From a virus, in the IMG/VR virus record IMGVR_UViG_3300042330_000875, positions 1 to 64,000 of that record: a DNA stretch of 64,000 nucleotides, one strand, 5' to 3'. The position numbers and the translations under genes were made by a program. The first letter of the stretch is position 1. Each line of letters opens with the position of its first letter. Positions 13,349-59,333 of the stretch are shown here, piece after piece. The notes under the pieces were generated by a model. That model ran no database searches. It worked only from the letters and a program-made list of their open reading frames with translations, and was not told the origin of the DNA.

Positions 13349-13654
13349 TTATGTGTATTTTAACAACATTTCTACCTGAAAGGTATTTGTTTGATTTGGG
13401 TGATCTTTCAACCAATCATGAATGTTTTTATATTTTTTCCAGTTTAACCAATATTCCAGATAACCATCAGGCCAAATAATTGCTGGACCCGTTAAACGAT
13501 GGCGAAAATAGCGTTTTTTACACCAAACTTTATAACCAGTTAATATATATTCAACTGCCGGTTTATTTTCATTTGGTGAAGAAACTTTATGCCAAGGAAT
13601 ATCTTCTTCGTCATCAGTTGTATATTTTTTTCTATTAACATAATAAATGAACAT
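13349..13654 (-). CDS. HRLTGPA-family paralog, tail type A
   Basis: SSPNENKPA, HRLTGPA, HPNQTNTFQVEMLLKYT. Confidence 0.85.
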   Translation of the reverse strand: MFIYYVNRKKYTTDDEEDIPWHKVSSPNENKPAVEYILTGYKVWCKKRYFRHRLTGPAIIWPDGYLEYWLNWKKYKNIHDWLKDHPNQTNTFQVEMLLKYT

Positions 13655-13719
13655 TTATATTGCTTTCTAATAATACAGGAGTTTTAATTTGTTAGTAATT
13701 TTTCAAGTGACAAATAACT

Positions 13720-14031
13720 TTATATGTATTTTAGTAACATTTCAACTTGAAAGGCATTGTCTTGTTTTGGATGATCTTTTAACCAATCATGAATATTATT
13801 AAAATAATTTTTATCATTTAACCAAAAAGAATAACTTCTATCAGAATAAATTCTTGCAGGTCCAGTTAATCGATGTAAAATTCTTCCTTTTTCGCACCAA
13901 ACTTTATGTTCAGAATTTAAATCTTGTAAAGCGGGTGTATTTTCATCGGGTGATGAAACATGATACCGAGGAATATCAAAATAGTTATCAGTGGTAAATT
14001 TTTCATTATCAATATAATAAATATAAGTCAT
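13720..14031 (-). CDS. HRLTGPA-family paralog, tail type A
   Basis: SSPDENTPA, HRLTGPA, FQVEMLLKYI. Confidence 0.85.
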   Translation of the reverse strand: MTYIYYIDNEKFTTDNYFDIPRYHVSSPDENTPALQDLNSEHKVWCEKGRILHRLTGPARIYSDRSYSFWLNDKNYFNNIHDWLKDHPKQDNAFQVEMLLKYI

Positions 14032-14037
14032 TTATCT

Positions 14038-14149
14038 TTCTTTCAAATAGCGGTTTAAAGGCGATTAGAGGCACATTACAGAGGTTTTAGATTGATTTAG
14101 GTATTTGGGTTAGTTAATTAAATTTAATCGGCTTTAAATCGCTTTAAAA
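14038..14149 (-). repeat. Non-coding repeat B, copy 1 (~110 bp)
   Basis: Matches 40762..40871 and 54197..54307. Confidence 0.9.
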
Positions 14150-14503
14150 CTAATTTTGTAAAAACCATAAGACTTTATCGGTTTCTGTAAAAACGCCAAT
14201 ATTATGAAAATAAAGATCGGGGTTTGGATGATCATTAATCCATTCTTTTATGGTTTTATAATATTTTCCATTTAACCAAAATTCTTCTCTTCCATCAGAA
14301 AGAATTCTTGCTGGTCCAGTTAATCGATGCCATATGTGTGATTTTTTACACCAAAGTTTTTTTAAAAATAATTTATTATTTTTATTTGATAAATTTTCAA
14401 ATGCTGGAATTTCTTCATTTGGTGAAGATATAAAAGCATACGGAACATAAAATTTTTCATTAGTTGTAAATTTTTTTCCATCGATATAATAAATAATAGT
14501 CAT
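14150..14503 (-). CDS. HRLTGPA-family paralog, tail type B
   Basis: HPNPDLYF...TETDKVLWFLQN. Confidence 0.85.
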   Translation of the reverse strand: MTIIYYIDGKKFTTNEKFYVPYAFISSPNEEIPAFENLSNKNNKLFLKKLWCKKSHIWHRLTGPARILSDGREEFWLNGKYYKTIKEWINDHPNPDLYFHNIGVFTETDKVLWFLQN

Positions 14504-14549
14504 TTTTCTTTATTACATCATTTTATTGGATTGATCAACAAGAAAATTT

Positions 14550-15080
14550 TTAAATTAAATTTTGATTTTTAGATAATTTTACAAGTAGATTTAATTTTCG
14601 ATCATAATTTAATCCCCAAGTTTTTAAACTTTTAATCCATAAGAATAATTGTTTAATCCAATTTGGAATTATAGATTCTTCGATAGGTTTAACTTTTAAA
14701 CTTGGCGATACAATTGTCGTACTGGTGTATTTTTCTTTTATTTCAGTTAATTTTGTTAATAATTCAGGAGTTAAATGTTCAGTTAATTCATCTAATACTT
14801 TAGCATAAGCTACGGTATTTCTTGGTGCTGGATTTTTACTTAATGTAAAAGTAAAAGAAACTGTTTTAACTATTCTAGTTTTTGTTATATCTTCTGCTTC
14901 ATCGAAAAGATCGGCTACAAGTTCTTTTGTTTCTTGTTTTGTAATTTCTTTTAGCTCATCCAACTCTTTGGATAATTCAGAAATTTTTAATAAATTTTTA
15001 GCTAATTTAGTATATTTTGCGCTATCATAGCTTTTCAATTCAGCAACGCACTTATCAATTAATCTGGTAATGCTAATCAT
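14550..15080 (-). CDS. Hypothetical protein
   Basis: 176-aa ORF with AAGGA SD. Confidence 0.7.
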   Translation of the reverse strand: MISITRLIDKCVAELKSYDSAKYTKLAKNLLKISELSKELDELKEITKQETKELVADLFDEAEDITKTRIVKTVSFTFTLSKNPAPRNTVAYAKVLDELTEHLTPELLTKLTEIKEKYTSTTIVSPSLKVKPIEESIIPNWIKQLFLWIKSLKTWGLNYDRKLNLLVKLSKNQNLI

Positions 15081-15111
15081 TTTGTTATCCTTAAAGGTAT
15101 TTTTAATATTT

Positions 15112-15654
15112 ATGAAAAAGAAAATTTTTAATAGAAATTACACAATAAATCCAAGCGTAAGATTATTACGTTGTTTAGAAAGTCGTAGGCATAGTTTATG
15201 TAACAATGAGTTTTGTGAGTATTGTGGTAAAGAAAAACGAAGTTCAATGAGCAATCAAATAGTAAATCGATTTTCAATGAGTAATCAGAGATTATGGGCA
15301 GTAACTTTATTAGACCCAAACAATAGTGAATTAGAAAATATAAAAAAATATCATGCTGATAATTTATTAACTGGTATTTGGGTTCCTGAGATTGTTTTTA
15401 AAAGAAAAAATGTTTCAAATTGGTTTGAAAATAATATTGTATTTCATTATCATGCTGTGGTAGTTAGTAATGATAATCCTGCTGAAACAATGAGAACAAT
15501 ATGGAATAAGTATCGTCAATTACACGTTCAAGAGATTTACAATTTATCTGGATGGGCAAATTATATGTGCAAAATGTTCGTTGATCCAAAAGATAAAAAG
15601 CAAACTAAATTTTTAGACAATCGATTAATAGAAAAAAAGTTAATAATATTTTAA
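15112..15654 (+). CDS. Putative HUH (rolling-circle Rep-like) endonuclease
   Basis: CNNEFCEYC, WAVTLL, FHYHAVV, YMCK in the expected order. Confidence 0.55.
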   Translation: MKKKIFNRNYTINPSVRLLRCLESRRHSLCNNEFCEYCGKEKRSSMSNQIVNRFSMSNQRLWAVTLLDPNNSELENIKKYHADNLLTGIWVPEIVFKRKNVSNWFENNIVFHYHAVVVSNDNPAETMRTIWNKYRQLHVQEIYNLSGWANYMCKMFVDPKDKKQTKFLDNRLIEKKLIIF

Positions 15655-15663
15655 AGGAATAAA

Positions 15664-16463: not shown

Positions 16464-17567
16464 ATGATCACACGCGCTGAAGCCAAATCAATCGTTGAAA
16501 ATAACGCTTGTTTCTTTTGTATTGAAGAAACTGTTGATGGTTATCCAGTTGAAATTTACAATTATGGATTGGCTGGATTGATGGATTTTGAAAACCCTTT
16601 AAAGCAAGATGTTGTTAATATCAACGCTTGGGATATGCGTAGCCTTTGTTTTGTTAAAATTGAAGATAATTGGCAACGTTGGTTTAGCTTGCCTAAATTT
16701 TTCTCATTAAATCAAACTCGTGGATATATGTTAAATGATTTGAAAAATATTCCAGTTGTTGGAGTTTATGAAAAATTCGATGGTTCGTTGATTACTGCAA
16801 TTGTAATCGATAATAAAGTTTATTGTCGTAGTAAAAATTCTTTTTATTCGTCGCAAGCTGTTAAAGCTAATCAATTAATTGAACAAAATATTGAATTGAA
16901 AGATTATATCATTGCTCAATCTAAGTTGGATAACGTTTGTATTTTTGAATTGATTGGTGTTGATCGAGTTGTTGTTGAATATGATAAAATTGAATTGCGT
17001 GGATTATTTTTACGCAATAATTCAACTGGTGTTTTAACTGCATGGGAAAACGATGGTCCTGAAAATTTTATTTCTCAATACCCAACTATTGAAAGTTTGG
17101 TTAATATTGATAAAAAGAATTTTGAAGGTGTTGTTGCGTTATTGGCCGATGGGCGATTAGTTAAGTCAAAAACCAATTGGTATGAAACCATGCACGATGT
17201 TACTGTTGAAAAAACTGATAATTTAAATCGCATTATTGCTTTAGTTTTGGCTGGACATTCGGATGATGCTATTGCATCTTTACAAAACGAAGAACGTAAA
17301 GAAATTATTCGTGAAGTTGAAACTGTTGTATTTTCGGCATATAAAGAAATTATGAAAAACGTAAAAGAAGTTTTTTCTCGTTTACAAACGGAAGATCGTA
17401 AAACTTTAGCTCAAGAAATTTCTGATAAGGGAATTTTTGGTATGGCTTGTCGGCTATTAAAACAAGAAAATATTGATTGGGATAAAGAAATTCGTCAATA
17501 TATTAGTGGTTCAACTAATAGCCGTATTAAAGCTGAAGAATGGTTTAAAAAATGGAAAAATATGTAA
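16464..17567 (+). CDS. RNA ligase, T4 Rnl1-like
   Basis: PKFF, EKFDGSLI (motif I), FELIG, EGVV, KSKT. Confidence 0.85.
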   Translation: MITRAEAKSIVENNACFFCIEETVDGYPVEIYNYGLAGLMDFENPLKQDVVNINAWDMRSLCFVKIEDNWQRWFSLPKFFSLNQTRGYMLNDLKNIPVVGVYEKFDGSLITAIVIDNKVYCRSKNSFYSSQAVKANQLIEQNIELKDYIIAQSKLDNVCIFELIGVDRVVVEYDKIELRGLFLRNNSTGVLTAWENDGPENFISQYPTIESLVNIDKKNFEGVVALLADGRLVKSKTNWYETMHDVTVEKTDNLNRIIALVLAGHSDDAIASLQNEERKEIIREVETVVFSAYKEIMKNVKEVFSRLQTEDRKTLAQEISDKGIFGMACRLLKQENIDWDKEIRQYISGSTNSRIKAEEWFKKWKNM

Positions 17568-17866
17568 TTGATCAAAGTTTTAATTTAGTTAAAATGCAAG
17601 AGTTCAATCTTGCATTTGCAACAGCATCTATTCATTCAAGTAATTTAAATTTATATTTAGAAAAGAAAATTTCAGATATAGATTTTATAAATTCATTAAT
17701 AGAACATTTAGACCCAATTAAAAAAGAAAAATTATATAATATTTTAAAATATACTAATGTTGAAATAAAATTAAGTCGATTTGAATTAAGTTTATATGAA
17801 AATATTTTATTAATTTTAACATTTAAATCTTATGCTGATGAAATTTTATATTTTTTAGGATCATAA
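17552..17866 (+). CDS. Hypothetical protein with shared C-terminal tag
   Basis: Ends SYADEILYFLGS. Confidence 0.65.
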   Translation: MEKYVIDQSFNLVKMQEFNLAFATASIHSSNLNLYLEKKISDIDFINSLIEHLDPIKKEKLYNILKYTNVEIKLSRFELSLYENILLILTFKSYADEILYFLGS

Positions 17867-17868
17867 TT

Positions 17869-18201
17869 TTGAGATTTATTTATTACATTGATGGTGAAAA
17901 ATTCACAACTGAAGATAAATTCAGTAATAGTCTTTGGAAAAAAATATCATCACCTGATGATAATACGCCTGCATTCGAAACTTCTAATGGTTATAAATTT
18001 TATTGCCATTTAGATGAACAAATATATCGATTAAATGGGCCTGCCGAAATTACTTCTGATGGAAGAGAAGATTTTTATTTAAATGGAAAAAGATATGAAA
18101 CCATAAAAGAATGGATTAATGATCATCCAAATCCTGATCTTTATTTTGATGCAATTGGTTTAAATGAAACCGAACGAGTTTTATGGTTTTTAAAAAAATA
18201 A
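17869..18201 (+). CDS. HRLTGPA-family paralog, tail type B
   Basis: TTG start; YRLNGPA; HPNPDLYFDAIGLNETERVLWFLKK. Confidence 0.8.
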   Translation: MRFIYYIDGEKFTTEDKFSNSLWKKISSPDDNTPAFETSNGYKFYCHLDEQIYRLNGPAEITSDGREDFYLNGKRYETIKEWINDHPNPDLYFDAIGLNETERVLWFLKK

Positions 18202-18211
18202 AGGAATTAAA

Positions 18212-18598
18212 ATGTATAATTTGATTATTGATGATGAATTGGTTCATAATAACTCTTATCGTCATCCAAATAAAATCCCCAATCTTTGTAATATTTCAGA
18301 TCAATTTTTGATTAACAAGTATTTTAATGAAGAATGGATTTTTGCGGCTACTTTTCAAGAAGCTATTGCTATTATTGAACAAAAAGGTTGTCCAAAATTT
18401 ATCAGTTTTGACAATGATTTGGGCAATAGCAGCAATGGTGATGGTATTGATGTTGCTAAATGGCTGGTAGTAAAAGATTTGGATAACAATGGCAAATTTA
18501 TTCTACCTGAATTTGGTTATTTTGTTCATAGCCAAAACCCAATTGCTGCTGAACAAATTAGCGGATTATTGTATAATTATCTTTGTACTAAATGCTAA
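18212..18598 (+). CDS. Cyclic-phosphate-processing receiver-like domain protein
   Basis: IDD, ISFDNDLG, GIDVAKWLV, VHSQNP; close to the RNA ligase. Confidence 0.7.
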   Translation: MYNLIIDDELVHNNSYRHPNKIPNLCNISDQFLINKYFNEEWIFAATFQEAIAIIEQKGCPKFISFDNDLGNSSNGDGIDVAKWLVVKDLDNNGKFILPEFGYFVHSQNPIAAEQISGLLYNYLCTKC

Positions 18599-18628: not shown

Positions 18629-19066
18629 ATGTTTAATCATATTAAATTTTTAGAAATATTAGAACAACAAATTGACATTAAAAAACCATCTTTAAAATTT
18701 ATGCTAGTTGGGGATTTAAGCACCAAATTAAATACGTTATTTTGTAATTTACGTGGAACAGAAAATTACAAAGGTAAAAGATTAACTGAACAAGGAAGAA
18801 TTTTATGTTCAAGTATTTTTGAAAGTTATCAAGTAAATTATTCAAAAGATCATCGCATAACAAACAGTGATTTAATTTGGCTTGATAATAATACTAAAAT
18901 GCCTTATTGGTTAAGTCCTGATGAATTGGTTTTATACGAAAAAAAATTAGGCGTGCTTATGTGCTTAAATGATGGCGATATAACACAAATGATAAATCAA
19001 CAAGTAAATTCTGATAAACAAAATAATATTTCAAATTGGCGAGAAAGCGTAGGAAAATATAAATGA
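18629..19066 (+). CDS. Hypothetical phage protein
   Basis: 145-aa ORF; TAAATA-N5-ATG start. Confidence 0.7.
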   Translation: MFNHIKFLEILEQQIDIKKPSLKFMLVGDLSTKLNTLFCNLRGTENYKGKRLTEQGRILCSSIFESYQVNYSKDHRITNSDLIWLDNNTKMPYWLSPDELVLYEKKLGVLMCLNDGDITQMINQQVNSDKQNNISNWRESVGKYK

Positions 19067-19371
19067 GATACGTTTATTACGTTGATGGTGAGAAATATAC
19101 AACTGATAATTATTATGAAATTAATTTTTATGGTATTTCATCATTTGATGAAAATACCCCCGCGTTTGAAGATTTATCAACCGGTGAAAAAGGATGGTGT
19201 AAAAAAGGATATATTATTCATCGTTTAACTGGACCAGCCCGAATTCTTTCTGACGATATCGAATATTTTTATTTAAACAATAAACGTTACAAAAAAGTAA
19301 ACGAATGGTTAAACCATCATCCAAATCAAGATAATTCTTTTCAAGTTGAAATGCTTTTAAAATACAGTTAA
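19063..19371 (+). CDS. HRLTGPA-family paralog, tail type A
   Basis: HRLTGPA, FQVEMLLKYS. Confidence 0.85.
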   Translation: MRYVYYVDGEKYTTDNYYEINFYGISSFDENTPAFEDLSTGEKGWCKKGYIIHRLTGPARILSDDIEYFYLNNKRYKKVNEWLNHHPNQDNSFQVEMLLKYS

Positions 19372-22221: not shown

Positions 22222-23394
22222 CTACTTTGATTTAGGAATTTTAGAATCAGCACTTGAAACACAACTTTTACTTATGCATTTTGTTGGTTGATCAAATATT
22301 TTAAATCCATTTACTAAATCTCCTAATGGTTGATCAGCACAACTATAGCCGCGTTTAACAATTCCATTTGGTTCACGAATAATAATACTTTGATAACCAG
22401 AATTACAATTCCAATTTTCAAAATTATTAAAATTAAAACTGTTCATACGTTCAGCTTGATCAAGATACCATTTTTTGTTTTCTTCATCGGTTAATTCTAC
22501 TTGCATTATTTGTGGAATTTTTTCTTGATTTTCTAAAACATCTTGTAATTTTTTATATTTTGGACGGGTTGGAATTTTATTATTTTTATCTAATGCTTGT
22601 TGTGTAAAGTCTCGTTGTGGCATACCATTATAAAGACGATTTAACATGTCTTGTGAATATCCATCAACAATCTTTGTAGCATTATAATTGCTTTGTGGTT
22701 TTAATGTTGTATTAATCCCCAATTCATGAAAATAAAGTGCATTTTCCCAATCGAATTCAAATAAATCAGGACGCATAACCATATTAATTGTTACTTGTAT
22801 ATCATTTTCTTGACAATATAATAATTTTTCAATAAATTTTTCTTTTTTAGCAAATTCAGAATGAAAACTAGCTGTAATACTTACACGATGTAAATTTTTA
22901 GTTACTTCAACATATTCTTTTAACCATTTTAAATTTTTACTCATATTAGTTGTCATATGCACACTTTGATAATTTGTTTTTTCCAAATGAGTTGTATAAT
23001 GATTTAAAATTTTTAAATAATCTGGATGTGCAGTAGGTTCACCACCAGAAAAACTAAAATGAAATGAATTAAAATTGTTTTCATTAGCTTGATAGATAAT
23101 TTCATCAATTGTTTTTGTAATTACATCTAATGGTCGAAAATCTTTAATGTGTGTACTGGCGTAGCCCCAGCAGTAGGAGCAATGGGCATTTTCATATTTT
23201 TTCCCATTTACTTCAATAATTTTTTTAGATTTTTCATCAGGTTTTTTTAAAAAATTAAAATTGCAATATCTTTGCAAAATCCAACTGACATTGAATAGAT
23301 CACGCTCTAACATAGTGCGTTGACCAAATGATTTTATCTTATCAAAGGGAATTTTAGTAAAGTCATATTGTGACCATTTTAAATTATCGTTCAT
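22222..23394 (-). CDS. Radical SAM protein with extended CX27CX2C motif and C-terminal twitch-like Cys cluster
   Basis: FSGGEPT, MTTN, SFHSEF; C-terminal C...C...CISKSC. Confidence 0.85.
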   Translation of the reverse strand: MNDNLKWSQYDFTKIPFDKIKSFGQRTMLERDLFNVSWILQRYCNFNFLKKPDEKSKKIIEVNGKKYENAHCSYCWGYASTHIKDFRPLDVITKTIDEIIYQANENNFNSFHFSFSGGEPTAHPDYLKILNHYTTHLEKTNYQSVHMTTNMSKNLKWLKEYVEVTKNLHRVSITASFHSEFAKKEKFIEKLLYCQENDIQVTINMVMRPDLFEFDWENALYFHELGINTTLKPQSNYNATKIVDGYSQDMLNRLYNGMPQRDFTQQALDKNNKIPTRPKYKKLQDVLENQEKIPQIMQVELTDEENKKWYLDQAERMNSFNFNNFENWNCNSGYQSIIIREPNGIVKRGYSCADQPLGDLVNGFKIFDQPTKCISKSCVSSADSKIPKSK

Positions 23395-23408
23395 AAATAA
23401 TATTTAGT

Positions 23409-24470
23409 TTAACTTTTAAATAATTTTGTCAATTTAAAAAAGTCTTGTTTTCTCAATTGATCTAATTTATTGTTGTTTTCTAAAAAATTATTCCAATTTC
23501 CTTCTTTGATATTCAACAAATATTTTTTTATTTTATCAAATTGATTTTCAGAATAATAATCAATTAAATATTGTTTTTTATCAAATGAAATATGTTTTAA
23601 GTTTAAATAATCAGGATGTTCTAAAATATTCCAATAAATTTCACGATCACACCAATTATCTAATTCTTTTAAAAATTCGATATTGGTTATTTGAACTGTG
23701 CAGTGAATTTTTATTTCAGCTTTAAGTTGTTTTATAGTTTCATAATTTTTTAAAAATTGATTCCATTTTGCAGGATAACGAATATACTCATAAACATTTT
23801 CAATTCCATCAACCGACAAATGTAATTTTAAATTAGAAAATTTTTCCCATAATTTTAAAACTTTATCAGGTAATACAGTTAAATTTGTATTGTACTTTAA
23901 TTCTATATTAGTTTTGTTATTATCGATCAACCATTGTAATATATCAATATGATGAGGGTTCAATAAAGGTTCTCCACCTGTAAAATAAATTGCTTCAATA
24001 AATTGTAAATTATTTTTTAATTGAACAAAAAATTCTTGGTTTTTATCCCAATTGTAAAGTTTAGTTTGTTCATTCCACATTTTTTGATGATCTTCTTGCC
24101 AAGCAGAACTAGAATAGCCATTACACATTCTACAACGTAAATTACAACTATTACCTAATCTTAAATCTAAATAAACAATTTCTGTTTTTTCATTGTTTTT
24201 TATTTTTTTTAAATGAACAGAAAATTTTTCATTATAAGCTAATCTTGCACTTTTTAAACCAAAACTTTCTTCATTAAAACATCGTTTACAAACTGTTGGT
24301 TTTTTATTTTCCAACATTTCATTTTTAATTGATTTAAGGTAATTTTCTTTGTATTCTTCTATTTGATCAAAGCGATAATTTGAAGATGATTGTGCATTAC
24401 AGCAAACACGTAATTTTCCTGTTGGAGTAGTTGCTAAATGAATCCAAGGTAAAACACATAAATTATTCAT
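23409..24470 (-). CDS. Radical SAM protein with N-terminal twitch-like cluster
   Basis: CNLRCRMC, FTGGEP, SVDG. Confidence 0.9.
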   Translation of the reverse strand: MNNLCVLPWIHLATTPTGKLRVCCNAQSSSNYRFDQIEEYKENYLKSIKNEMLENKKPTVCKRCFNEESFGLKSARLAYNEKFSVHLKKIKNNEKTEIVYLDLRLGNSCNLRCRMCNGYSSSAWQEDHQKMWNEQTKLYNWDKNQEFFVQLKNNLQFIEAIYFTGGEPLLNPHHIDILQWLIDNNKTNIELKYNTNLTVLPDKVLKLWEKFSNLKLHLSVDGIENVYEYIRYPAKWNQFLKNYETIKQLKAEIKIHCTVQITNIEFLKELDNWCDREIYWNILEHPDYLNLKHISFDKKQYLIDYYSENQFDKIKKYLLNIKEGNWNNFLENNNKLDQLRKQDFFKLTKLFKS

Positions 24471-25539
24471 CGATCCAACCTACTATTTCTTTGTCGATAA
24501 CATCTTTATAATTTAAATTTCTAGTTGTATTAAAATAGTTTAAAGCAAATTTTAATTGTTCTTTATCAAATTTATTTTCTTGTTGAATAAAATTAACTAA
24601 TTCATCGTATTGATTGTGATTTTTTAATAATTGTAATTTGTTTAAAATGTATTCTTTTTTATCAGTTATATTGGCTTGGAAATATTCAGGCTTTCTTAAT
24701 ATCTCAAAATTTATTGGGATATTAAAATATTCATTTATTTTACCTAATTCACAAATATTAAAAAGCTGTACTGTACAATTAATCAATTGTTTTATATGTT
24801 GAAATTGTTGTAATTTAATTAAATTTTCTTCTATAATAGAAAATTTCAAAGGATAACGAATATATTTAAAAACATTATCTAAACCATCAATTGAGATTTT
24901 TATTTTGGCTTTGAGTTTATCAGTTAAATCAAAAAATTCTTCATCCCAAACAGATAAATTTGTTACAATATTTAATTGTGGGCTTAAATTATTTTCAACT
25001 AAATGTTGTAATACTTTTTTATTATTAATATCTAATAAAGGTTCGCCACCTCGCAAATTAATTCTTTTTGCATTTTTTAAAAAAGGTTTAACTATATCAA
25101 AATTTAATTCTGATTTTAAATTTTTGCCTTTATAATGAATTGGTACATTTTTATTTTTAACCTCTGATGCTATTGCCGAAGAACAACGTGGCGTACACAT
25201 AATACATTTACTGTTACAAATATTAGAAAAATTTAAATCTAAAATTTCTGCTTGATCAAAAAATTCAGTTAATTTGTTTGGTAAAATAAATTGTTCATTT
25301 ACAGTTAATCTTAAAGATTTTTTTCCTAATTCTTCATCTTTTTCACAACGCAAACAATTTTTTGGAAATTTATTATTAATAAAATCATTTCTAATTTGTT
25401 TCATAATTTCAGAATTATGGCGATTTTCAATGGGAATATTTTCAAAAGGCATATTTATTACAAAACCACACGGTACAAACGTGCCATCTGAATGAAAACC
25501 ATAACTTTTCCAAGGCATTACACATTTAACCATTATCAA
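24463..25539 (-). CDS. Radical SAM protein with N-terminal twitch-like cluster
   Basis: CNSKCIMC, RGGEP, SIDG. Confidence 0.9.
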   Translation of the reverse strand: MIMVKCVMPWKSYGFHSDGTFVPCGFVINMPFENIPIENRHNSEIMKQIRNDFINNKFPKNCLRCEKDEELGKKSLRLTVNEQFILPNKLTEFFDQAEILDLNFSNICNSKCIMCTPRCSSAIASEVKNKNVPIHYKGKNLKSELNFDIVKPFLKNAKRINLRGGEPLLDINNKKVLQHLVENNLSPQLNIVTNLSVWDEEFFDLTDKLKAKIKISIDGLDNVFKYIRYPLKFSIIEENLIKLQQFQHIKQLINCTVQLFNICELGKINEYFNIPINFEILRKPEYFQANITDKKEYILNKLQLLKNHNQYDELVNFIQQENKFDKEQLKFALNYFNTTRNLNYKDVIDKEIVGWIDE

Positions 25540-26311
25540 TCCAATCTAAAACTTCATTCCAATTTAAAATTATTTTATTTACATTATCAAAAGAGTAAGG
25601 ATTTTTTCTTACAAAACCTTCATGATTAAAAGAACTTTTTTCAAAAATTGTTTCACCAATTTCATGTGGTAATTTATTTACAATTGAATTATATTCAATA
25701 TTTTTATAAATTGAAAATTTATCTTTTGTTTGAATAAAAATTTCATATCGTTTTTTTATTTTATCAACTGTATTTTTATCTAAATTAAATGGTTCGGGTA
25801 ATTGATACTCTAATCCATTTAACAAATGAGTTGGATTATTTGAAAACCAAGAAATTGCATAACTTGCTATAATTTCTTTTAAATCACGATGTAAAACAAT
25901 TGCTTGATAATTTTCTTTCAAATACTCAAAATCATCATCGGGAATTAAATGATGACTTAAAATTTTTAAAAAATAATGTTGATGTTTGTATTTTTCTAAA
26001 ATTGTTTTAACTTTATAATCGTTTTTTAATAAAATATGATTTTTATTTATTAAATCTTCTTGGCAAGTAATATAAACTTCATTGGGAATTTTTCTTGTTC
26101 CTGGCGAATGTCTTACTTGAACTAAATTTTCATTTGTATCAACTAACCAGGGACATTCATTTTTATTTTGATTGAATAACTCAGTTGGAGTTACACCAAA
26201 ACTACAACTTGTTTTTGTTGCTAAATTATTATAAAATAAATAAAGTTGTAAACTACGATGTAATAAAAAACTTCCACTTCTACCACAAGAATAAACAAAA
26301 TACTTTTTCAT
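25526..26311 (-). CDS. Sulfotransferase-like P-loop protein
   Basis: N-terminal GRSGS (5'-PSB-like), HRD...IAS (3'-PB-like). Confidence 0.55.
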   Translation of the reverse strand: MKKYFVYSCGRSGSFLLHRSLQLYLFYNNLATKTSCSFGVTPTELFNQNKNECPWLVDTNENLVQVRHSPGTRKIPNEVYITCQEDLINKNHILLKNDYKVKTILEKYKHQHYFLKILSHHLIPDDDFEYLKENYQAIVLHRDLKEIIASYAISWFSNNPTHLLNGLEYQLPEPFNLDKNTVDKIKKRYEIFIQTKDKFSIYKNIEYNSIVNKLPHEIGETIFEKSSFNHEGFVRKNPYSFDNVNKIILNWNEVLDWIDNG

Positions 26312-26318
26312 TATCTAT

Positions 26319-27158
26319 TTACTTTTTCAAATAAGTCAATAAAGCTCTAGTACCAATTAGTTTATTTTCAAAAATTGCACTATGAATACAATTTGTTTTT
26401 GTTAAATTAAAATCAAAACAAAGTTTTTCATATTCTTCTCGATAATAGTTCCATAAAAAATTATCACCTAATGTTTCTATATAATGTAATGCCATAGCAG
26501 AATTAGTTTTATCAATCATATCATAAGCGTTCATTATACCAATACTTGTATTAGTTAAATCATTTTTAGATAAAATAACTCCAATTCTATTATTCATCAT
26601 ATCAAAAGATTTACTTAAACTAAAACCAATTTGTTTTATTTGACAATGACTTAAATCTAAAGTTAATTGTTCGCTACAACCCAACCAACAAGCATCAATA
26701 TAAATATCAATATTTCTTTCCGAACATATTTGTGAAATATCATTCCAATTATTGGGTAAAGATGATGTGCATGTATTTGGTATGCTAATTATTAAAGGTA
26801 TATTATTTTTTAGTTCTAATAATCCAACAGAATTATTGCCTAATTTTTGATGATATGAATATTCACCATGTAAAACTTGTATTTTATTTGATTGATAACA
26901 ATTATTAATAAAACCAGTACAGCCATTGGTTAAGTAATTATAATTAAAATTTTCTAATCCATATATATTATTATTTTTTGTAACATATTCGATAATTTTA
27001 CTTTTTATTATTGATTGAAATTTTTTATCAGTTATTATTGATCGATATTTTTTTATGTCAAAAGAAAAATACGTATCATAAAAAATCTTATTCCAAATTG
27101 GTTTTGGGGTTGGTAATAAAAATTCTTTATTATAATATGGTGCAGTTTTCATTAGCAT
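26319..27158 (-). CDS. PLP-dependent transferase-like protein
   Basis: IYIDACW, FSLSKSF, RIG. Confidence 0.7.
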   Translation of the reverse strand: MLMKTAPYYNKEFLLPTPKPIWNKIFYDTYFSFDIKKYRSIITDKKFQSIIKSKIIEYVTKNNNIYGLENFNYNYLTNGCTGFINNCYQSNKIQVLHGEYSYHQKLGNNSVGLLELKNNIPLIISIPNTCTSSLPNNWNDISQICSERNIDIYIDACWLGCSEQLTLDLSHCQIKQIGFSLSKSFDMMNNRIGVILSKNDLTNTSIGIMNAYDMIDKTNSAMALHYIETLGDNFLWNYYREEYEKLCFDFNLTKTNCIHSAIFENKLIGTRALLTYLKK

Positions 27159-28176: not shown

Positions 28177-28574
28177 TTTTTCATTATTTCATTAAAGTAA
28201 TTTTCGGGCCAATTGTTATAATAAACTGTTTTTTTTAATATATTTCTTTTAATTTCCATATCTTTTCTGTTTTGTATAAAAATACAATTGGTAAAATTTT
28301 TAACAAAAAGTCCAGATGTTGGTGTTGATTTTAAAACGATCCAATCATCATTAAATTTTAAAGTTAAAAATGTTAATAAAATATTATCAATTTTATTATC
28401 ACACCAAACGACATAAATTTTATCATTATCTGTAAAATTAAAATTATCAGTTGGTAATAAAAAATCAATTTTATTATTTATTCTAGCTGATTGGGCATAA
28501 GGACAAATATTTTTCTTTTCGATATTTGCTATTGACCATTCAATAAATTGTTTTTTAAATTCATCAAATTTCAT
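28173..28574 (-). CDS. Hypothetical protein with CPYA motif
   Basis: ICPYA; overlaps both neighbours. Confidence 0.65.
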   Translation of the reverse strand: MKFDEFKKQFIEWSIANIEKKNICPYAQSARINNKIDFLLPTDNFNFTDNDKIYVVWCDNKIDNILLTFLTLKFNDDWIVLKSTPTSGLFVKNFTNCIFIQNRKDMEIKRNILKKTVYYNNWPENYFNEIMKK

Positions 28575-30351: not shown

Positions 30352-30384
30352 GTAAATATTTAAATGAAAACCGATTTAATGATT

Positions 30385-38550: not shown

Positions 38551-38552
38551 TT

Positions 38553-40436: not shown

Positions 40437-40449
40437 AGAAATGATAAAA

Positions 40450-40755: not shown

Positions 40756-40761
40756 TTTAAT

Positions 40762-40871: not shown

Positions 40872-41204
40872 TTAATTTTGCAAATACCAAAGAATTTTAT
40901 CTGTTTCAGTAAAAATACCAATGGCATCAAAATACAGATCGGGATTTGGATGATCTTTAAGCCAATCATGAATATTTTCATAATATTTTCCATTAAGATA
41001 AAATTCTTTTGTTCCATCTGACCAAATTCTAGCTGGTCCCGTTAATCTATGATAATTTATTTCTTTTTCACACCAAAATTTAAAACCATCAGCTAAACCT
41101 TCAATTGCTGGCGTTTGTTCATTTAAAGATGATACATTAATAAATAGAATTTTTGAATAATATTTCGTTTTAAACTTTTCACCATCAATATAATAAACAT
41201 ACAT
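40872..41204 (-). CDS. HRLTGPA-family paralog, tail type B
   Basis: Start MYVYYIDG after AAGGA; ends TETDKILWYLQN. Confidence 0.85.
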   Translation of the reverse strand: MYVYYIDGEKFKTKYYSKILFINVSSLNEQTPAIEGLADGFKFWCEKEINYHRLTGPARIWSDGTKEFYLNGKYYENIHDWLKDHPNPDLYFDAIGIFTETDKILWYLQN

Positions 41205-52623: not shown

Positions 52624-52651
52624 AAAAAGGCGGGAAATTTCCCGCCTTTTT
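52624..52651. terminator. Intrinsic terminator, same stem-loop as 50665..50690
   Basis: AAAAGGCGGG-AAATTT-CCCGCCTTTT. Confidence 0.85.
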
Positions 52652-52959
52652 TATCCCCAACGTTCAATCATTTCTTTCTTAAAAGTTTCATCTTGATTAG
52701 GATGGTCTTTTAACCAATCTTGAATATTTTCATAAAGTTTATCATTTAACCTAAAAGAATAACTTCCATCAGGCCAAATTCTTGCAGGTCCAGTTAATCG
52801 ATGAAATTGCCAACCTTTTTTGCACCAAAGCTTTTCGCCTGTTTCTAAATTTTCATAAGCAGGAATTTCTTCATCTGGTGAAGAAATATCCAGCCAAGGA
52901 ATGTCATCTTCATTATCAGTTGTGTATTTTTTACCATCAACGTAATAAATATAATTCAT
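52651..52959 (-). CDS. HRLTGPA-family paralog, tail type C
   Basis: HPNQDETFKKEMIERWG. Confidence 0.85.
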   Translation of the reverse strand: MNYIYYVDGKKYTTDNEDDIPWLDISSPDEEIPAYENLETGEKLWCKKGWQFHRLTGPARIWPDGSYSFRLNDKLYENIQDWLKDHPNQDETFKKEMIERWG

Positions 52960-53002: not shown

Positions 53003-53311
53003 TTATCCCCAACGTTCAATCATTTCTTTCTTAAAAGTTTCATCTTGATTAGGATGGTCTTTTAACCAATCATGGATGTTTTGGTATTTTTTATCATTTA
53101 AATAAAAATCATAACTTCCATCGGGCCAAATAATAGCTGGTCCAGTTAATCGATGCCAAATTCTACCTTTTTCAGTCCAAATTTTTTCACCTGATTCTAA
53201 ATCTTCATAAGCAGGTGTATTTTCGTCTGGTGATGAAATTTTATCAAACGGAATTTTATAACCTTCTTTTGTTTTGTATTTTTTACCATCAACGTAATAA
53301 ATATAATTCAT
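53003..53311 (-). CDS. HRLTGPA-family paralog, tail type C
   Basis: HPNQDETFKKEMIERWG. Confidence 0.85.
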   Translation of the reverse strand: MNYIYYVDGKKYKTKEGYKIPFDKISSPDENTPAYEDLESGEKIWTEKGRIWHRLTGPAIIWPDGSYDFYLNDKKYQNIHDWLKDHPNQDETFKKEMIERWG

Positions 53312-53388: not shown

Positions 53389-53405
53389 GTGATTTTTTAA
53401 ATTTA

Positions 53406-53485
53406 ATTTTTGTTAAGTTGTAGTTGTAGAAACTCATTCAAAAAACCTATATTTTCTGCGGCTCTTCGTGAATAGAAAATTTATT
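53406..53485 (-). repeat. Non-coding repeat A, copy 3
   Basis: See copy 1. Confidence 0.9.
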
Positions 53486-53519
53486 GATATAATCAAATTA
53501 TAGGTATTGGATACGTATT

Positions 53520-53891
53520 TTAGTTATTAATTTCTGATATTTCAAAATAGTTTTTATTTTTTAAATTAAAATAATCTTTATAAACTCCCTTAACTATTTC
53601 ATAAATTAATTTTGTTAATCGATAGGTTTCTTTATTAGAGATAAATTTATCATTTACAATTAATAAATGTTCGTTCTTTTGAAAAACATGTTCGATTGCA
53701 ATAGTTAATTTTAAATTTTTATCGATAAATTTATTATTAGATAAATCAACTAAGTAAACAGTAAAATCTTTAATATAAATTGATGATATTATTTTTTTAT
53801 TATTTTGCATACAATTTTGATTTATTTCAGCAATTAATTTTTTAATTTTAGAAAAATAATATTTTATTAATAATCGATAAATTATGACCAT
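53520..53891 (-). CDS. Hypothetical protein inside cassette 3
   Basis: 123-aa ORF overlapping the paralog stop. Confidence 0.5.
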   Translation of the reverse strand: MVIIYRLLIKYYFSKIKKLIAEINQNCMQNNKKIISSIYIKDFTVYLVDLSNNKFIDKNLKLTIAIEHVFQKNEHLLIVNDKFISNKETYRLTKLIYEIVKGVYKDYFNLKNKNYFEISEINN

Positions 53892-54190
53892 TTTAGTAAC
53901 ATTTCAATTTGAAAGGTATTATCTTGATTTGGATGAAATGATAACCAATATTTAATATCATTATAATAACAAACGGAGTTTAAATAAAAATATTTTTTAC
54001 CATCAGGAAAAATTTCTGCGGGTCCAGTTAATCGATGATAAGCTCTTAATTTTTTACACCAAATTTTTTCACCTGTTAAAGTATCTTCATACGCAGGTAT
54101 TTGTTCATTTGGTGAAGAAATATAATCCCAAGGTACTTTTTTCTTTTTTGATTTTATAATTTTTTTACCATCAATATAATAAATTTCCAT
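53882..54190 (-). CDS. HRLTGPA-family paralog, tail type A
   Basis: HRLTGPA, FQIEMLLKWS. Confidence 0.85.
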   Translation of the reverse strand: MEIYYIDGKKIIKSKKKKVPWDYISSPNEQIPAYEDTLTGEKIWCKKLRAYHRLTGPAEIFPDGKKYFYLNSVCYYNDIKYWLSFHPNQDNTFQIEMLLKWS

Positions 54191-54196
54191 TTATCA

Positions 54197-54307
54197 TTCT
54201 TTCAAATAGCGGTTTAATCGCGTTTAGAGGCACATTGCAGAGGTTTTAGATTGATTTAGGTAATTTGGATAACCAATTAAGACAATAGGCTTTAAATCGC
54301 TTTAAAA
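54197..54307 (-). repeat. Non-coding repeat B, copy 3
   Basis: See copy 1. Confidence 0.9.
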
Positions 54308-54640
54308 CTAATTTTGTAAAAACCATAAAATTCTATCGGCTTCATTCATACCTAATGTATCAAAATAAAGATCGGGATTTGGATGATCTTTAAGCCAATC
54401 ATTTACATTTTCATATTTTTTTCCATTTAAATAAAATTCTTTAAATACATCAGAACAAATCCTGGCAGGACCAGTTAAACGATGTAAAACTTTATCTATT
54501 TGATACCAAAGTTTATATCCAGTTTCTAAGTTTTGACAAGCAGGCGTATTTTCATCTGGTGACGAAATATAATACTGAGGTATTTCTTTATAATTATAAG
54601 TTTTAAATTTTTCACCATCTATATAATAAATATATTTCAT
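54308..54640 (-). CDS. HRLTGPA-family paralog, tail type B
   Basis: HPNPDLYF...NEADRILWFLQN. Confidence 0.85.
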   Translation of the reverse strand: MKYIYYIDGEKFKTYNYKEIPQYYISSPDENTPACQNLETGYKLWYQIDKVLHRLTGPARICSDVFKEFYLNGKKYENVNDWLKDHPNPDLYFDTLGMNEADRILWFLQN

Positions 54641-57745: not shown

Positions 57746-57783
57746 TCTTCTACTATTTTTCTTATAAAGAACTAAGGAAAAAT

Positions 57784-58077
57784 ATGTTTGATAAAAATTT
57801 AGAATTTTTAATAAAATTTATACCTAATAAATCATTTAGAGAATTTATTAATGATGAAATTATTATTGTTAGAATACAAAACCATTCAATACAAATTTTT
57901 AATTATCCAAACGGAGAAGAAAATATAATTTTTAAATCATATATTAAAGATGATAATTTAATAAAAGAAATTAATACAAATATTGATATTGAAAAATTAA
58001 TTAATGATATTACGGGTTTGCTTATAGCATCGGATTTGTCATGGTGGAAAATCTATAGCGCTTATATAAGATTATGA
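57784..58077 (+). CDS. Hypothetical protein
   Basis: 97-aa ORF, AAGGA SD. Confidence 0.6.
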   Translation: MFDKNLEFLIKFIPNKSFREFINDEIIIVRIQNHSIQIFNYPNGEENIIFKSYIKDDNLIKEINTNIDIEKLINDITGLLIASDLSWWKIYSAYIRL

Positions 58078-58380
58078 ATATTTTAAAAGCATTTCAATTT
58101 GAAAGGAATTGTCTTGATTTGGATGTATTGATAACCATTTATGAATATTATCATAAAAATAATCATCTATCCAAAATTGAATTTTTCCGTTAAAACAAAT
58201 TCTTGCTGGTCCTGTTAAGCGATGCCATCGCCATCCTTTTTCACACCAAAGTTTTTCACCTGTTTCTAAAACTTCATAAGCAGGTGTATTTTCATCAGGA
58301 GAGGAAATTTCATCAAAAGGAATTGTATTGTAATTATCGGTTGTAAATTTTTTATTATCAATATAATAAATATATCTCAT
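58072..58380 (-). CDS. HRLTGPA-family paralog, tail type A
   Basis: HRLTGPA, FQIEMLLKYS. Confidence 0.85.
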   Translation of the reverse strand: MRYIYYIDNKKFTTDNYNTIPFDEISSPDENTPAYEVLETGEKLWCEKGWRWHRLTGPARICFNGKIQFWIDDYFYDNIHKWLSIHPNQDNSFQIEMLLKYS

Positions 58381-58452
58381 AACATTTTATCCTTTTTTAT
58401 TGTAATTGTTTGTTAAATAGATTAAATTTAATTTTTAAAGAGGAAAGAAAAA

Positions 58453-58686
58453 ATGACACCAGAAAGTATTTTAATTGAAGAATTGTGGGAAACCATTAAA
58501 GGTTTTACGCCTGCAAAACAAAAAACAGAAGTTCTTTATCAATTATTTCGTTTATTACAAGAATATGGAATTGAACAAGAAGATTTTGAAGATTTATTAG
58601 ACCATGATGACCTTGCATTAAAAAAAGCATTTATTCATGTTTATGAATTAGATTTAGATGAAAAGGATGATGAAGAGGAAGATTAA
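58453..58686 (+). CDS. Small acidic hypothetical protein
   Basis: GAGG SD; terminator 58673..58700. Confidence 0.7.
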   Translation: MTPESILIEELWETIKGFTPAKQKTEVLYQLFRLLQEYGIEQEDFEDLLDHDDLALKKAFIHVYELDLDEKDDEEED

Positions 58687-58699
58687 TCTTCCTCTTTTT

Positions 58700-59008
58700 T
58701 TATGTGTATTTTAACAGCATTTCCACTTGAAAGGCGTTATCTTGATTTGGGTGATCTTTTAACCAATCATGTACGTTTTTATAAGCGTTATCATTTAGCC
58801 AAAAGTGTTCTTGTCCATCAGAATTAATTACTGCGGGTCCAGTTAAGCGATGCAAAATTAATCCTTTATTACACCAATATTTTTTACCTGTTGATAAATT
58901 TTCCCAAGCAGGTGTATTTTCATCGGGTGATGAAATTTTTGACAAAGGGATTTCATGAGTTTTATCAGTTGTAAATTTTTCACCATCAACATAGTAAACA
59001 TATGTCAT
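58700..59008 (-). CDS. HRLTGPA-family paralog, tail type A
   Basis: HRLTGPA, FQVEMLLKYT. Confidence 0.85.
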   Translation of the reverse strand: MTYVYYVDGEKFTTDKTHEIPLSKISSPDENTPAWENLSTGKKYWCNKGLILHRLTGPAVINSDGQEHFWLNDNAYKNVHDWLKDHPNQDNAFQVEMLLKYT

Positions 59009-59027
59009 ATTATTTTTCTTTCATATT

Positions 59028-59333
59028 TTATGTGTATTTTAATATCATTTCTACCTGAAAGGCATTGTCTTGATTTGGGTGTACTTTTAACCAATCATTT
59101 ACATTGTCATATCTTTTATCATTTAAATAAAATCGTACTCTTCCATCATCCCAAATAAAAGCAGGTCCGGTTAATCGATGATGAATACCGCCATTTAAAC
59201 ACCAAAATTTAAATCCTGATTCTAAATTTTCAAAAGCGGGTGTTCGTTCATTAGGTGAAGAAATTTCTAACAAAGGAATTACACTATTATCTTCAGTTAG
59301 AAATTTTTCACCATCAATATAATAAATAATCAT
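59028..59333 (-). CDS. HRLTGPA-family paralog, tail type A
   Basis: HRLTGPA, FQVEMILKYT. Confidence 0.85.
   Translation of the reverse strand: MIIYYIDGEKFLTEDNSVIPLLEISSPNERTPAFENLESGFKFWCLNGGIHHRLTGPAFIWDDGRVRFYLNDKRYDNVNDWLKVHPNQDNAFQVEMILKYT

Follow-up and report, generated by a model that had tools for sequence, protein, structure and literature searches.

The window analysed here is a stretch of 64,000 nucleotides, positions 1 to 64,000 of IMG/VR record IMGVR_UViG_3300042330_000875, which has a full length of 146,077 bp. The record belongs to an uncultured, T4-like phage that is very AT-rich (27.6% GC). CheckV assigns this viral record a completeness of 45%, and the phage genome is probably about 320 kb in size. 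T4-type core genes that were matched include gp32, a RecA/UvsX-type recombinase, the gp15 tail sheath stabiliser, and dNMP kinase. The C-terminal domain of T4 Rnl1 is matched only weakly, under the Pfam cut-off.

The window carries 16 ORFs for related small proteins, each 101-117 aa in length, and all are located where a sequence-only reading of this DNA had placed them. The 16 copies align over their full lengths, with 42-65% identity to the first copy, and share the invariant residues Y4, Y5, K10, S26, P32, A33, K42, R53, L54, G56, P57, I60, Y75, W81, H85, P86, and F92. Each copy matches the family profile with an E-value of 1e-42 to 1e-54, which excludes chance. The copies are listed below with nearby features, including two kinds of non-coding element (spA and spB). 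The letters A and C denote forms of a short C-terminal tail, and B denotes a long tail.

13257-13348, minus strand: spA element, about 93 nt, 3' of a short-tailed copy
13349-13654, minus strand: copy, 101 aa, short tail (A)
13720-14031, minus strand: copy, 103 aa, short tail (A), cassette gene 2 of a B-spacer-A unit
14032-14149, minus strand: spB spacer, about 115 nt, from a long-tailed copy to the next copy
14150-14503, minus strand: copy, 117 aa, long tail (B), first repeat loop with a 6-residue insert
17869-18201, plus strand: copy, 110 aa, long tail (B), start codon TTG, motif variant YRLNGPA
19063-19371, plus strand: copy, 102 aa, short tail (A)
35725-36042, minus strand: non-family ORF, 105 aa, ending in the tail-B terminal helix motif (..LDEILWFLKQD)
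36905-37213, minus strand: copy, 102 aa, short tail (A), flanked by a weak PTH2-like ORF and dNMP kinase
38245-38550, minus strand: copy, 101 aa, short tail (A)
40357-40449, minus strand: second spA element
40450-40755, minus strand: copy, 101 aa, short tail (A)
40756-40871, minus strand: second spB spacer
40872-41204, minus strand: copy, 110 aa, long tail (B), cassette gene 1, directly 3' of the double-AAA+ ATPase gene
41233-43344: double-AAA+ ATPase gene
52651-52959, minus strand: copy, 102 aa, short tail variant (C), with a terminator and then a TTGACA promoter on its 3' side
53003-53311, minus strand: copy, 102 aa, short tail variant (C), with its own TTGACA-type promoter, in tandem with the copy at 52651
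53404-53497, minus strand: third spA element, after the ORF at 53520-53891 and downstream of the copy at 53882
53882-54190, minus strand: copy, 102 aa, short tail (A), cassette gene 2
54191-54307, minus strand: third spB spacer
54308-54640, minus strand: copy, 110 aa, long tail (B), cassette gene 1, model pLDDT 92
58072-58380, minus strand: copy, 102 aa, short tail (A)
58700-59008, minus strand: copy, 102 aa, short tail (A), terminator on its 3' side, model pLDDT 97.4
59028-59333, minus strand: copy, 101 aa, short tail (A), separated by 2 nt from nadE, which lies upstream

The family extends well beyond these 16 copies. A family-profile search of the whole 146,077-bp record finds 38 intact and 3 broken copies, and the intact genes occupy 8.5% of the 146 kb. 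Related contigs hold 25, 9, and 6 more near-full copies (about 40). Copies are located directly after nadE, beside uvsX/gp32, and adjoining dNMP kinase, in agreement with the operon placements first proposed. For the copy said to lie between pth2 and dNMP kinase, the kinase neighbour is sound, but the pth2 call is weak and falls under the Pfam cut-off. The spB spacer is present at 4 places in the record and spA at 6, and both are also found on related contigs. Sites of the form TTGACA-N16-18-TAnnnT occur at twice their frequency in shuffled sequence and are located immediately 5' of 5 copies and immediately 3' of 8. Strong terminators follow 6 copies. We consider this descriptive account of the family to be nearly certain.

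Predicted protein architecture

AlphaFold2 models of the short-tail form (pLDDT 97.4) and the long-tail form (pLDDT 92.0) both include three hairpins, accompanied by two helices in the former and three in the latter. The protein is predicted to be composed of a half-unit N-terminal hairpin and two beta-hairpin units of the HRxDGPA type, each 24-28 residues long, for about 2.5 units in total. In the models, the three hairpins make one sheet, wherein the first unit is degenerate (ISSPDENTPA). This sheet would be backed by the WLKDHPN helix and by one (short tail) or two (long tail) additional helices. All 16 window copies carry HRLTGPA..DG...F.LN.K.Y and thus contain the HRxDGPA repeat unit, and a three-unit paralog with HRDNDLPA and HRENGPA units is found at 139287-139688 of the record.

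The family profile retrieves 6,073 uncharacterised repeat proteins from phages, giant viruses, and bacteria at E-values up to 1e-3, most of which are long. The top matches are 300-1900 aa in length and carry 5-19 matched stretches each, which fall on profile positions 30-77. Full-length look-alikes form about 20 clusters (50% identity) among the 150 best matches listed, from 1.8 billion representatives. Fold matches in BFVD and the ESM Atlas are small uncharacterised Caudovirales proteins, several proteins of Agrobacterium phage Atu_ph07, and giant-virus repeat proteins. Foldseek found no solved structure in the PDB at E up to 0.001, and the highest Z among 48,161 chains in VIA-align was 3.7 (an Rhs shell), where Z below 4 is the noise level for that search. 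Known binder families were likewise absent from these matches. The family has no Pfam entry of its own, and the five window proteins that were scanned do not match DUF6745 (PF20530) at E up to 1. Sampled long relatives match this model weakly; of the five that match, three score above the cut-off, and the other two equal it or fall slightly short.

A WD40 reading was rejected. The summed E of 4.5e-17 to 2ymu combines 13 stretches that score 1-6 bits apiece and have E-values of 150-4500 when taken singly, and the model is a three-hairpin sheet with helices instead of a propeller.

Variable positions and tails

The proposal that a fixed framework carries variable patches is confirmed by per-position entropy. 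Values above 2.7 bits are reached at about 20 hypervariable positions (17-19, 22-24, 39, 42, 44, 50, 52, 60, 62, 63, 66-68, 75, 77, and 80), which are placed in the loop at 16-24 and at alternate strand residues. Along the strands they alternate with the near-invariant K43, W45, I61, F69, and Y76, and it is this strand periodicity, not model coordinates, by which the spatial clustering of variable sites was judged. The patches had been described as rich in aromatic and charged residues, and relative to the proteome level Trp is enriched 4.3-fold, Tyr 2.6-fold, Arg 2.2-fold, and charged residues 1.5-fold. The variable positions are also loaded with His, and their make-up is interface-like.

Selection differs between the two classes of site. 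With classes set on one contig set and omega measured on the other, the frame has an omega of 0.16-0.19 versus 1.5-1.6 at variable sites, although values above 1 are suggestive only because they derive from pairwise counting among recombining paralogs of a 27% GC genome with near-saturated replacement sites. Frame codons also fall short of silent-site equilibrium (heterozygosity of 0.30 versus 0.39 expected). Purifying selection acts on the turn motifs and on the side of the sheet that faces the helices, and the data are suggestive of variable sites that evolve at least as fast as silent sites.

The window holds 10 copies with tail A, 4 with tail B, and 2 with tail C, exactly as first counted. 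However, there are two real tail types rather than three, because tail C grades into tail A through a series of FQVEM, FQIEM, FQKEM, and FKKEM forms. Tail type has no association with any of core positions 1-69, and two A/B pairs have near-identical cores, such that tail and core assort independently. In the models, each tail is helical and packs into the fold. The sequence-only reading proposed that the tail sets the destination of each protein, which is a putative role.

Exchange among copies and its possible purpose

Short segments had been noted to recur in different combinations among the copies, and these shared segments are real. The WPDGYLEYWLN stretch of the copies at 13349 and 40450 has 83% nucleotide identity (rank 11 of 2775 pairs), and the C-terminal core shared by those at 14150 and 17869 has 88.5% identity (rank 2 of 2775). 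Mosaic pairs have segments of 89-96% nucleotide identity, which rank first or second among the 2775 pairs, with flanks at or below the family median. Over its first two thirds, the copy at 40450-40755 shares 90.6% DNA identity with a long-tailed copy of a related contig, and the central 132 nt of the copy at 58072-58380 are 95.5% identical to a related contig's long-tailed copy. The last 66 nt of the tandem copies at 52651 and 53003 are identical. Over-long shared tracts are observed in 191 pairs versus about 7 expected. In addition, a related strain carries a single chimeric 127-aa gene with an internal duplication in place of the tandem copies at 58700 and 59028, and one whole copy is apparently missing from a contig of another strain. 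Segmental recombination among copies is thus shown by the mosaic pairs and the strain chimera. Because tests on the family as a whole are weak, the case for shuffling rests on individual events and not on every statistic.

The existing copies are stable. Each of the copies checked has the same sequence on 5-8 contigs, and across a family copy the record has 100% identity to four contigs that come from other samples. Diversification is therefore not fast on ecological time scales, and there is no hypermutation, as the same genotype is found unchanged in four other samples. A search of the 146-kb record, itself a fragment, gave no match to a reverse transcriptase (RVT_1), which is no proof for the entire genome. 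The possibility that the genes are targets of a diversity-generating retroelement was rejected on this result, as far as the 146 kb extend, and on the 100% identity of the four contigs from other samples.

In this phage, one small gene has been amplified, with no fewer than 38 copies intact within 146 kb, and its products are soluble proteins of 100-117 residues. New variants arise by tandem duplication, unequal crossing-over, and short-tract gene conversion, for which the conserved framework DNA provides the homology. We propose that the genes are most likely expressed from early units of the sigma-70 type, and that the proteins would serve the phage within the infected cell as a repertoire of single-domain binders. 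Each putative binder would recognise a different or variable target, probably a host protein, and these might include defence or takeover targets. We regard this putative function as a binder repertoire as an evenly balanced proposition. The suggestion that the proteins are anti-defence inhibitors or decoys describes a further putative role.

The copies might instead constitute an old, tree-like paralog family, wherein an ancestral burst of duplication was followed by independent divergence under relaxed surface constraint, gene conversion is incidental, and each copy has a fixed housekeeping or accessory role. The core tree is indeed star-like, with 54 of 72 forks unresolved, and a star tree also predicts the lack of linkage that is seen between variable columns. 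Likewise, PHI on the core is not significant, a single origin of the long-tailed genes survives an AU test (p 0.18), and the identity of copies across contigs and samples fits such a history. However, mosaic pairs that rank first or second in one segment are at the median elsewhere, some A/B pairs have near-identical cores, and copy number varies among related strains, which also have a chimeric gene. Moreover, variable sites rich in Trp, Tyr, and Arg outpace silent sites despite the AT bias, which would not result from neutral drift at 27% GC. We consider this history unlikely. As a point against the binder-repertoire model, much of the pattern would be accounted for by an old, rapid radiation and subsequent independent drift.

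Some characteristics of the locus are reminiscent of a selfish cassette, in which homologous or site-directed recombination would spread the genes and their spA and spB flanks while the phage gains little. These non-coding flanks are conserved at 80-90%, which exceeds the conservation of coding DNA, the B-spacer-A unit recurs, and copies are located between unrelated operon genes. Furthermore, family DNA is nearly the only sequence of more than 65% identity that is common to the record and the related contigs. However, 38 of 41 copies are intact and the frame omega is 0.16, indicating selection on the protein. No nuclease, transposase, or integrase accompanies the copies, spA and spB are found with only a minority of them, and target-site duplications and terminal repeats were not seen. 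These findings considerably dampen the appeal of the selfish cassette, which we judge to be improbable.

Equally improbable in our view is that the proteins are adaptors with a common dock. A conserved face or terminal helix would bind a shared phage or host machine, such as the double-AAA+ ATPase, and the variable face would pick a cargo to be unfolded, degraded, or relocated. The last helix of the long tail would then be a docking tag common to other small phage proteins. The motif [DE]x[ILVCA][ILV][WYFL]x[LM][KQRM] closes 19 of 37 family ORFs in the record and also 11 non-family small ORFs, versus 0.06 expected from its internal frequency, and the bodies of these 11 are mostly unrelated to the family. 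The AAA+ gene is also located directly upstream of a long-tailed copy. However, the model packs the terminal helix into the fold (pLDDT of about 85), and so this helix might be a structural cap rather than a free tag. In addition, this tag is absent from half of the family, and the AAA+ protein has no match to a protease partner and, among named models, comes closest to that of the IteA anti-phage ATPase, far below the cut-off.

Virion or assembly components (decoration proteins, fibre tips, or chaperones) whose variety serves host range outside the cell are very improbable, even though the window has structural genes such as the gp15-like tail sheath stabiliser and the fold has weak resemblances (Z of 2-3.7, within the noise) to Rhs shells and baseplate or spike proteins, because copies are interspersed with genes for replication and nucleotide metabolism and with small early-type genes, outside the structural module, are associated with sigma-70-type promoters and terminators, and encode proteins without signal peptides or trimerisation features.

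Comparison with known systems

A close resemblance is to the HRxDGPA repeat proteins of phages, giant viruses, and bacteria, which are partly covered by Pfam DUF6745 (PF20530) and have the same unit, HR-x-x-GPA followed by G...[WFY]x[LW]N[GD]K. In those proteins, a 23-24-residue beta-hairpin unit is present in variable number, whereas the family described here is fixed at about 2.5 units. It also differs in its degenerate first unit (SSPDENTPA), its own WLKDHPN helix, and the addition of one of two tails.

MORN repeats (PF02493, PF07661) resemble the family in their period of about 23 residues and are known from eukaryotic MORN1, MORN4, and junctophilins and from bacterial antitoxins of the YwqK type. 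Their units are beta-hairpins in a continuous antiparallel sheet that is used for binding. One BFVD match of the family is annotated as a giant-virus MORN-repeat protein. However, neither Pfam model matches the proteins, nor the 146-kb record in a six-frame search at E up to 1, and MORN entries are absent among the Foldseek-PDB and VIA-align matches listed. Given that there is no Pfam match and no solved MORN structure among the matches, this resemblance is a lead rather than evidence of membership.

Giant viruses carry ankyrin, FNIP/IP22, BTB, and MORN families, and poxviruses carry ankyrin host-range genes, in which, as in the phage, dozens of paralogs with a small binding scaffold are dispersed or arrayed. 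These families are thought to engage host proteins and to evolve by duplication and recombination. The present family differs in that it belongs to a T4-like phage of a bacterium and encodes a single domain of 100 residues without an F-box or effector domain.

The vls system of Borrelia and the pilE/pilS system of Neisseria offer a conceptual comparison only. There, as here, segments are exchanged via conserved framework DNA, and variation is confined to defined patches. However, silent cassettes in those systems feed one expression site, whereas the phage carries separately placed genes, of which 38 of 41 are intact. The phage alleles are also stable across samples, and the proteins are phage-encoded and predicted to be intracellular.

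Copy number and genomic setting

The 16 ORFs that the sequence-only reading had assigned to this family of small proteins are exactly those recovered by a six-frame motif scan, and they can be aligned end to end. A profile made from them finds every copy with E values of 1e-42 to 1e-54, and it yields 43 matches in the whole 146,077-bp IMG/VR viral record, of which the window is the first 64 kb. The genome-wide copy count called for in that reading, carried out on the 146-kb record, gives 38 intact and three broken genes after curation. The record's copies comprise 19 with a long and 19 with a short C-terminal tail, and the intact genes occupy 12,360 bp, or 8.5% of its DNA.

Broken family copies
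Record 64909-65224: broken copy
Record 99287-99602: broken copy
Record 138973-139227: broken copy

Family genes appear to be decaying at record 138616-139688, which holds a divergent long-tailed copy, a 133-residue copy with three repeat units, and a frame-broken copy whose first 37 residues almost equal those of window copy 52651 (copies are named by their start coordinate in the window).

CheckV rates the record as 45% complete, and thus the genome should be roughly 320 kb. The GC content of the window is 22-32%, and no tRNAs were found in the record.

T4-type and other genes in the window
gp32
RecA/UvsX-type recombinase
gp15-like tail sheath stabiliser
dNMP kinase
Glutamine-dependent NAD synthetase
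Radical SAM enzymes

The same family is found on four IMG/VR contigs, with 25, 9 and 6 near-full copies on three of these and the fourth being a duplicate. Since one related contig is contained exactly within another and two of them have a 12-kb overlap, the unique sequence amounts to about 146 + 108 + 64 kb. The record and the related contigs (G001, G003 and G004) have almost no other genes in common, and the family is nearly the sole case of DNA identity above 65% between them. The GC content of these contigs matches that of the record, and their CheckV fractions sum to about one genome. Thus, they probably represent the rest of the same phage genome of about 320 kb, or of a sister genome, which would then carry about 75-80 family copies. 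No family match was found by tblastn among INPHARED phages, or by pattern search and tblastn in a set with one genome per prokaryote species. Among 13 phage contigs retrieved by UvsX similarity (50-63% identity; GC markedly higher, at 30-59%), none carries a family copy in the flanks fetched, and no NadE relatives were found in IMG/VR.

Copies occur singly, in tandem, or in a recurring cassette in which a long-tailed gene is followed by a 115-nt spacer and then by a short-tailed gene. The window has three such cassettes and the rest of the record one more, and the cassette also occurs on related contigs. The spacer, spB, is 82-88% identical among its occurrences, is also present on related contigs, and is better conserved than the genes that flank it. 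A second element, spA, consists of invariant blocks (GAGCCGCAGAAA ... ACTGCAACTTAACAAAA) that flank a variable middle, followed by a TTGACA box. Both elements are 80-90% conserved, which exceeds the conservation of the family genes themselves, and neither has a match in Rfam. A stem-loop seen in single-sequence folds of spA was set aside, as it has no column-wise covariation support.

Non-coding elements flanking family copies
Window 14032-14149, 40756-40871, 54191-54307; record 65277-65388: spB, about 115 nt, between a long-tailed copy and the next copy
Window 13257-13348, 40357-40449, 53404-53497; record 96954-97034, 104259-104347, 108739-108831: spA, about 93 nt, downstream of short-tailed copies

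Promoter-like sites of the sigma-70 type number 51, compared with 25 in shuffled sequence. Such a site lies just upstream of five copies and just after eight, and strong terminators follow six, suggesting from predicted sites that many copies close early-type transcription units.

Several neighbouring genes are of note. The 703-residue protein with two AAA+ domains has as its best named match an anti-phage ATPase (IteA) model, far under the cut-off. The second locus might be an RNA repair module into which a family gene is wedged. Some ORFs of the radical SAM/SPASM cluster have counterparts with 28-34% identity on a related contig.

Neighbouring genes
Window 41233-43344 (-): 703-residue AAA+ protein, directly upstream of a long-tailed family copy
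Window 16464-18598 (+): in order, weak T4 RNA ligase 1-like ORF, small ORF, family copy, cREC_REC (cyclic-phosphate processing receiver) domain protein
Window 195-1541 and 22222-35397: cluster of about 13 kb, with several ORFs of the radical SAM/SPASM type and paralogous enzymes
Record 101698-102174: 158-residue ORF with a Tn7 TnsA-like N-terminal domain, close to family copies

Fold, fixed frame and variable positions

An AlphaFold2 model of a short-tailed copy, built on a 41-row alignment, has a pLDDT of 97.4 and a pTM of 0.86. The long-tailed form is modelled with the same core and three helices (pLDDT 92).

Elements of the short-tail model
Residues 3-14: hairpin
Residues 17-19: short helix
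Residues ~35-52: second hairpin region
HRLTGPA: turn
Residues 60-76: third hairpin
Residues 79-84 and 91-101: helices

The core is repetitive by sequence. The stretch ISSPDENTPA...G.K.W is a degenerate first unit, HRLTGPA...DG...F.LN.K.Y is the second, and the N-terminal YYIDGEKF looks like the latter half of a unit; three clear units are present in one paralog of the record. Searching 1.8 billion representative proteins with the profile gave 6,073 matches, most of them long proteins with 5-19 stretches each on the core columns. Full-length look-alikes of about 100 residues number about 20 among the best 150 of these matches. Five sampled long relatives match Pfam DUF6745, three above the cut-off and two at or just below it. 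The family proteins of the window match no Pfam, PHROG or NCBIfam model.

Fold searches of solved structures gave no match (Foldseek, none at E up to 0.001; best VIA Z 3.7). These searches do return small uncharacterised Caudovirales proteins, several proteins of the jumbo Agrobacterium phage Atu_ph07, and giant-virus repeat proteins. A high-scoring WD40 match in a PDB sequence search is an artefact of many insignificant repeats being summed, and weak matches to APOBEC1, BiPBP_C, MazG-like and cupin models are at chance level. A literature search on DUF6745, the repeat motif, MORN or paralog families in phage returned nothing relevant and no published description.

The claim of a fixed framework with variable patches gained strength from the 75 copies examined. 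Entropy is near zero at Y5, Y6, S27, P33, A34, K43, W45, H53-P58, Y76, W82, H86-N88 and F93, and exceeds 2.7 bits at positions 2, 17-19, 22-24, 39, 42, 44, 50, 52, 60, 62, 63, 66-68, 75, 77 and 80. Variable and conserved residues alternate along the strands (42/43/44/45, 60/61/62, 68/69, 75/76/77). Judged from this periodicity rather than from model coordinates, the sheet appears to have one variable face and to pack against the helices with its other face. In comparison with the proteome of this phage, Trp (4.3-fold), Tyr (2.6-fold), His (2.3-fold) and Arg (2.2-fold) are overrepresented at the variable positions, where aliphatic residues, Gly and Pro are depleted. This composition is that of protein-interaction hot spots, and it runs counter to the AT bias of the genome.

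Pairwise Nei-Gojobori estimates of omega are 0.16 in frame codons and 1.6-2.1 in variable codons. When site classes were set on one contig set and omega was measured on the other, which guards against circularity, the values were 0.16-0.19 and 1.5-1.6. Silent sites of frame codons are short of codon-usage equilibrium (heterozygosity 0.30 vs 0.39), replacement sites of the variable face are near saturation, and replacement changes in recently diverged segments fall almost entirely at high-entropy positions. Although the counting method is crude for such a genome, the variable sites appear to evolve at least as fast as neutral and are probably positively selected.

Recombination and tails

The case for shuffling is uneven across methods. 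The core tree is a star on which tail types are scattered like shuffled labels (28 changes vs 28.5), a result with little power alone. The PHI test reaches significance for the whole alignment yet does not when restricted to the core, and was therefore set aside as evidence of core recombination, and an AU test on core columns does not reject a single clade of long-tailed genes (p 0.18). The decay of linkage between variable columns cannot tell recombination from a star radiation and was therefore not retained as evidence. Shared-tract breakpoints cluster at the edges of conserved blocks, as is expected from the tract scoring, and we make no claim from this.

Local events provide the decisive evidence for recombination. 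Over 132 nt, copy 58072 shares 95.5% identity with a long-tailed copy from a related contig, which ranks first among 2775 pairs, whereas the flanks are 76% and 59% identical. The short-tailed copy 40450 matches another long-tailed copy at 90.6% over 192 nt and at 49% thereafter. Within the window, the pairs 14150/17869 and 13720/52651 each share one segment (88.5% and 88.9% identity, rank 2) and are ordinary elsewhere. In 191 pairs, shared tracts exceed those of all 400 site permutations, where about 7 such pairs would be expected; this null ignores rate differences between sites.

Strains also differ at family loci. One contig of a different sample, with 87.6% identity over the nadE-proximal locus, carries a 127-residue chimeric gene with an internal duplication in place of the tandem pair 59028 and 58700. 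On another strain's contig, the 14150-13720 cassette is present with spacing too short for copy 13349. A 90%-cluster variant of copy 58072 has 13 residue differences, all within positions 29-72. In other samples, four contigs show 100% identity to the record, and each copy checked is unchanged on 5-8 contigs. Thus, family copies do not hypermutate, and no reverse transcriptase was found in the 146-kb record.

Tail type shows no statistical association with any core position from 1 to 69 and is linked only to the adjoining helix, where, for example, Ile83 is exclusive to the long tail. The sequence-only reading had described three swappable tails (A, B and C) on a shuffled repertoire. Long and short types stand as units unlinked to the core, but "C" (four short tails) grades into "A". 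Shuffling itself finds support in the mosaic pairs, over-long tracts, tail independence and strain differences, and gains none from the PHI test on the core or from the AU test.

The last helix of the long tail has the motif [DE]x[ILVCA][ILV][WYFL]x[LM][KQRM]. This motif also lies at the extreme C-terminus of 11 non-family ORFs in the record, where 0.06 would be expected from its internal frequency. The bodies of these ORFs are mostly unrelated, or barely related, to the family. Because the helix is packed into the fold in the long-tail model, a common structural cap is as plausible a role for it as a docking tag.

Non-family ORFs with the terminal-helix motif (e.g. ..TDEVLWKLKN)
Window 35725-36042
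Record 98917-99294
Record 101310-101615
Record 105505-106167
Record 106788-107504
Record 110855-112361
Record 116616-116867
Record 122170-122487

Possible functions

Most likely, the family is an intracellular repertoire of small binding proteins that the phage produces early in infection. Its diversity would stem from duplication, short-tract conversion and unequal crossing-over, and selection would act on one face of the proteins. Phage genomes are compact, yet about 8% of the DNA here is devoted to one small gene, which argues for strong selection. A complex prediction for a long-tailed copy and its cassette partner scored 0.00 without controls and weighs neither way on binding.

The main rival explanation, which we judge unlikely, is an old radiation with relaxed constraint on the protein surface and only incidental gene conversion. 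A star-like core tree and an AU test that leaves a single long-tailed clade standing sit comfortably with such a history; the omega values of the variable codons and the mosaic pairs point instead to selection and active exchange. That the genes are a selfish cassette is very improbable, since this would account for the conserved spacers but leave the purifying selection on the frame unexplained.

If the proteins are indeed binders, they constitute a natural library with dozens of variants of one scaffold, which is 100 residues long and poor in cysteine, is modelled with confidence and has defined variable positions. Such a library could help to identify what large phages have to disarm in the host, and could serve as a scaffold for protein engineering. 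The family also offers a manageable example of how a multigene family is shaped by gene conversion and unequal crossing-over, in a virus that has a UvsX recombination system of its own. The repeat superfamily has thousands of members, and we found no published study of it; any function found for the present family would extend widely.

A bolder form of the binder reading is unlikely. It holds that the phage encodes a combinatorial binder library on a minimal beta-hairpin scaffold, with a paratope-like face diversified by gene conversion and positive selection, that neutralises shifting host defence effectors or other host proteins. The C-terminal helix shared by long-tailed members and unrelated small proteins would then mark a common docking or hand-over system. 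If true, a virus of bacteria would possess an 'antibody-like' repertoire that is innate and germline-encoded.
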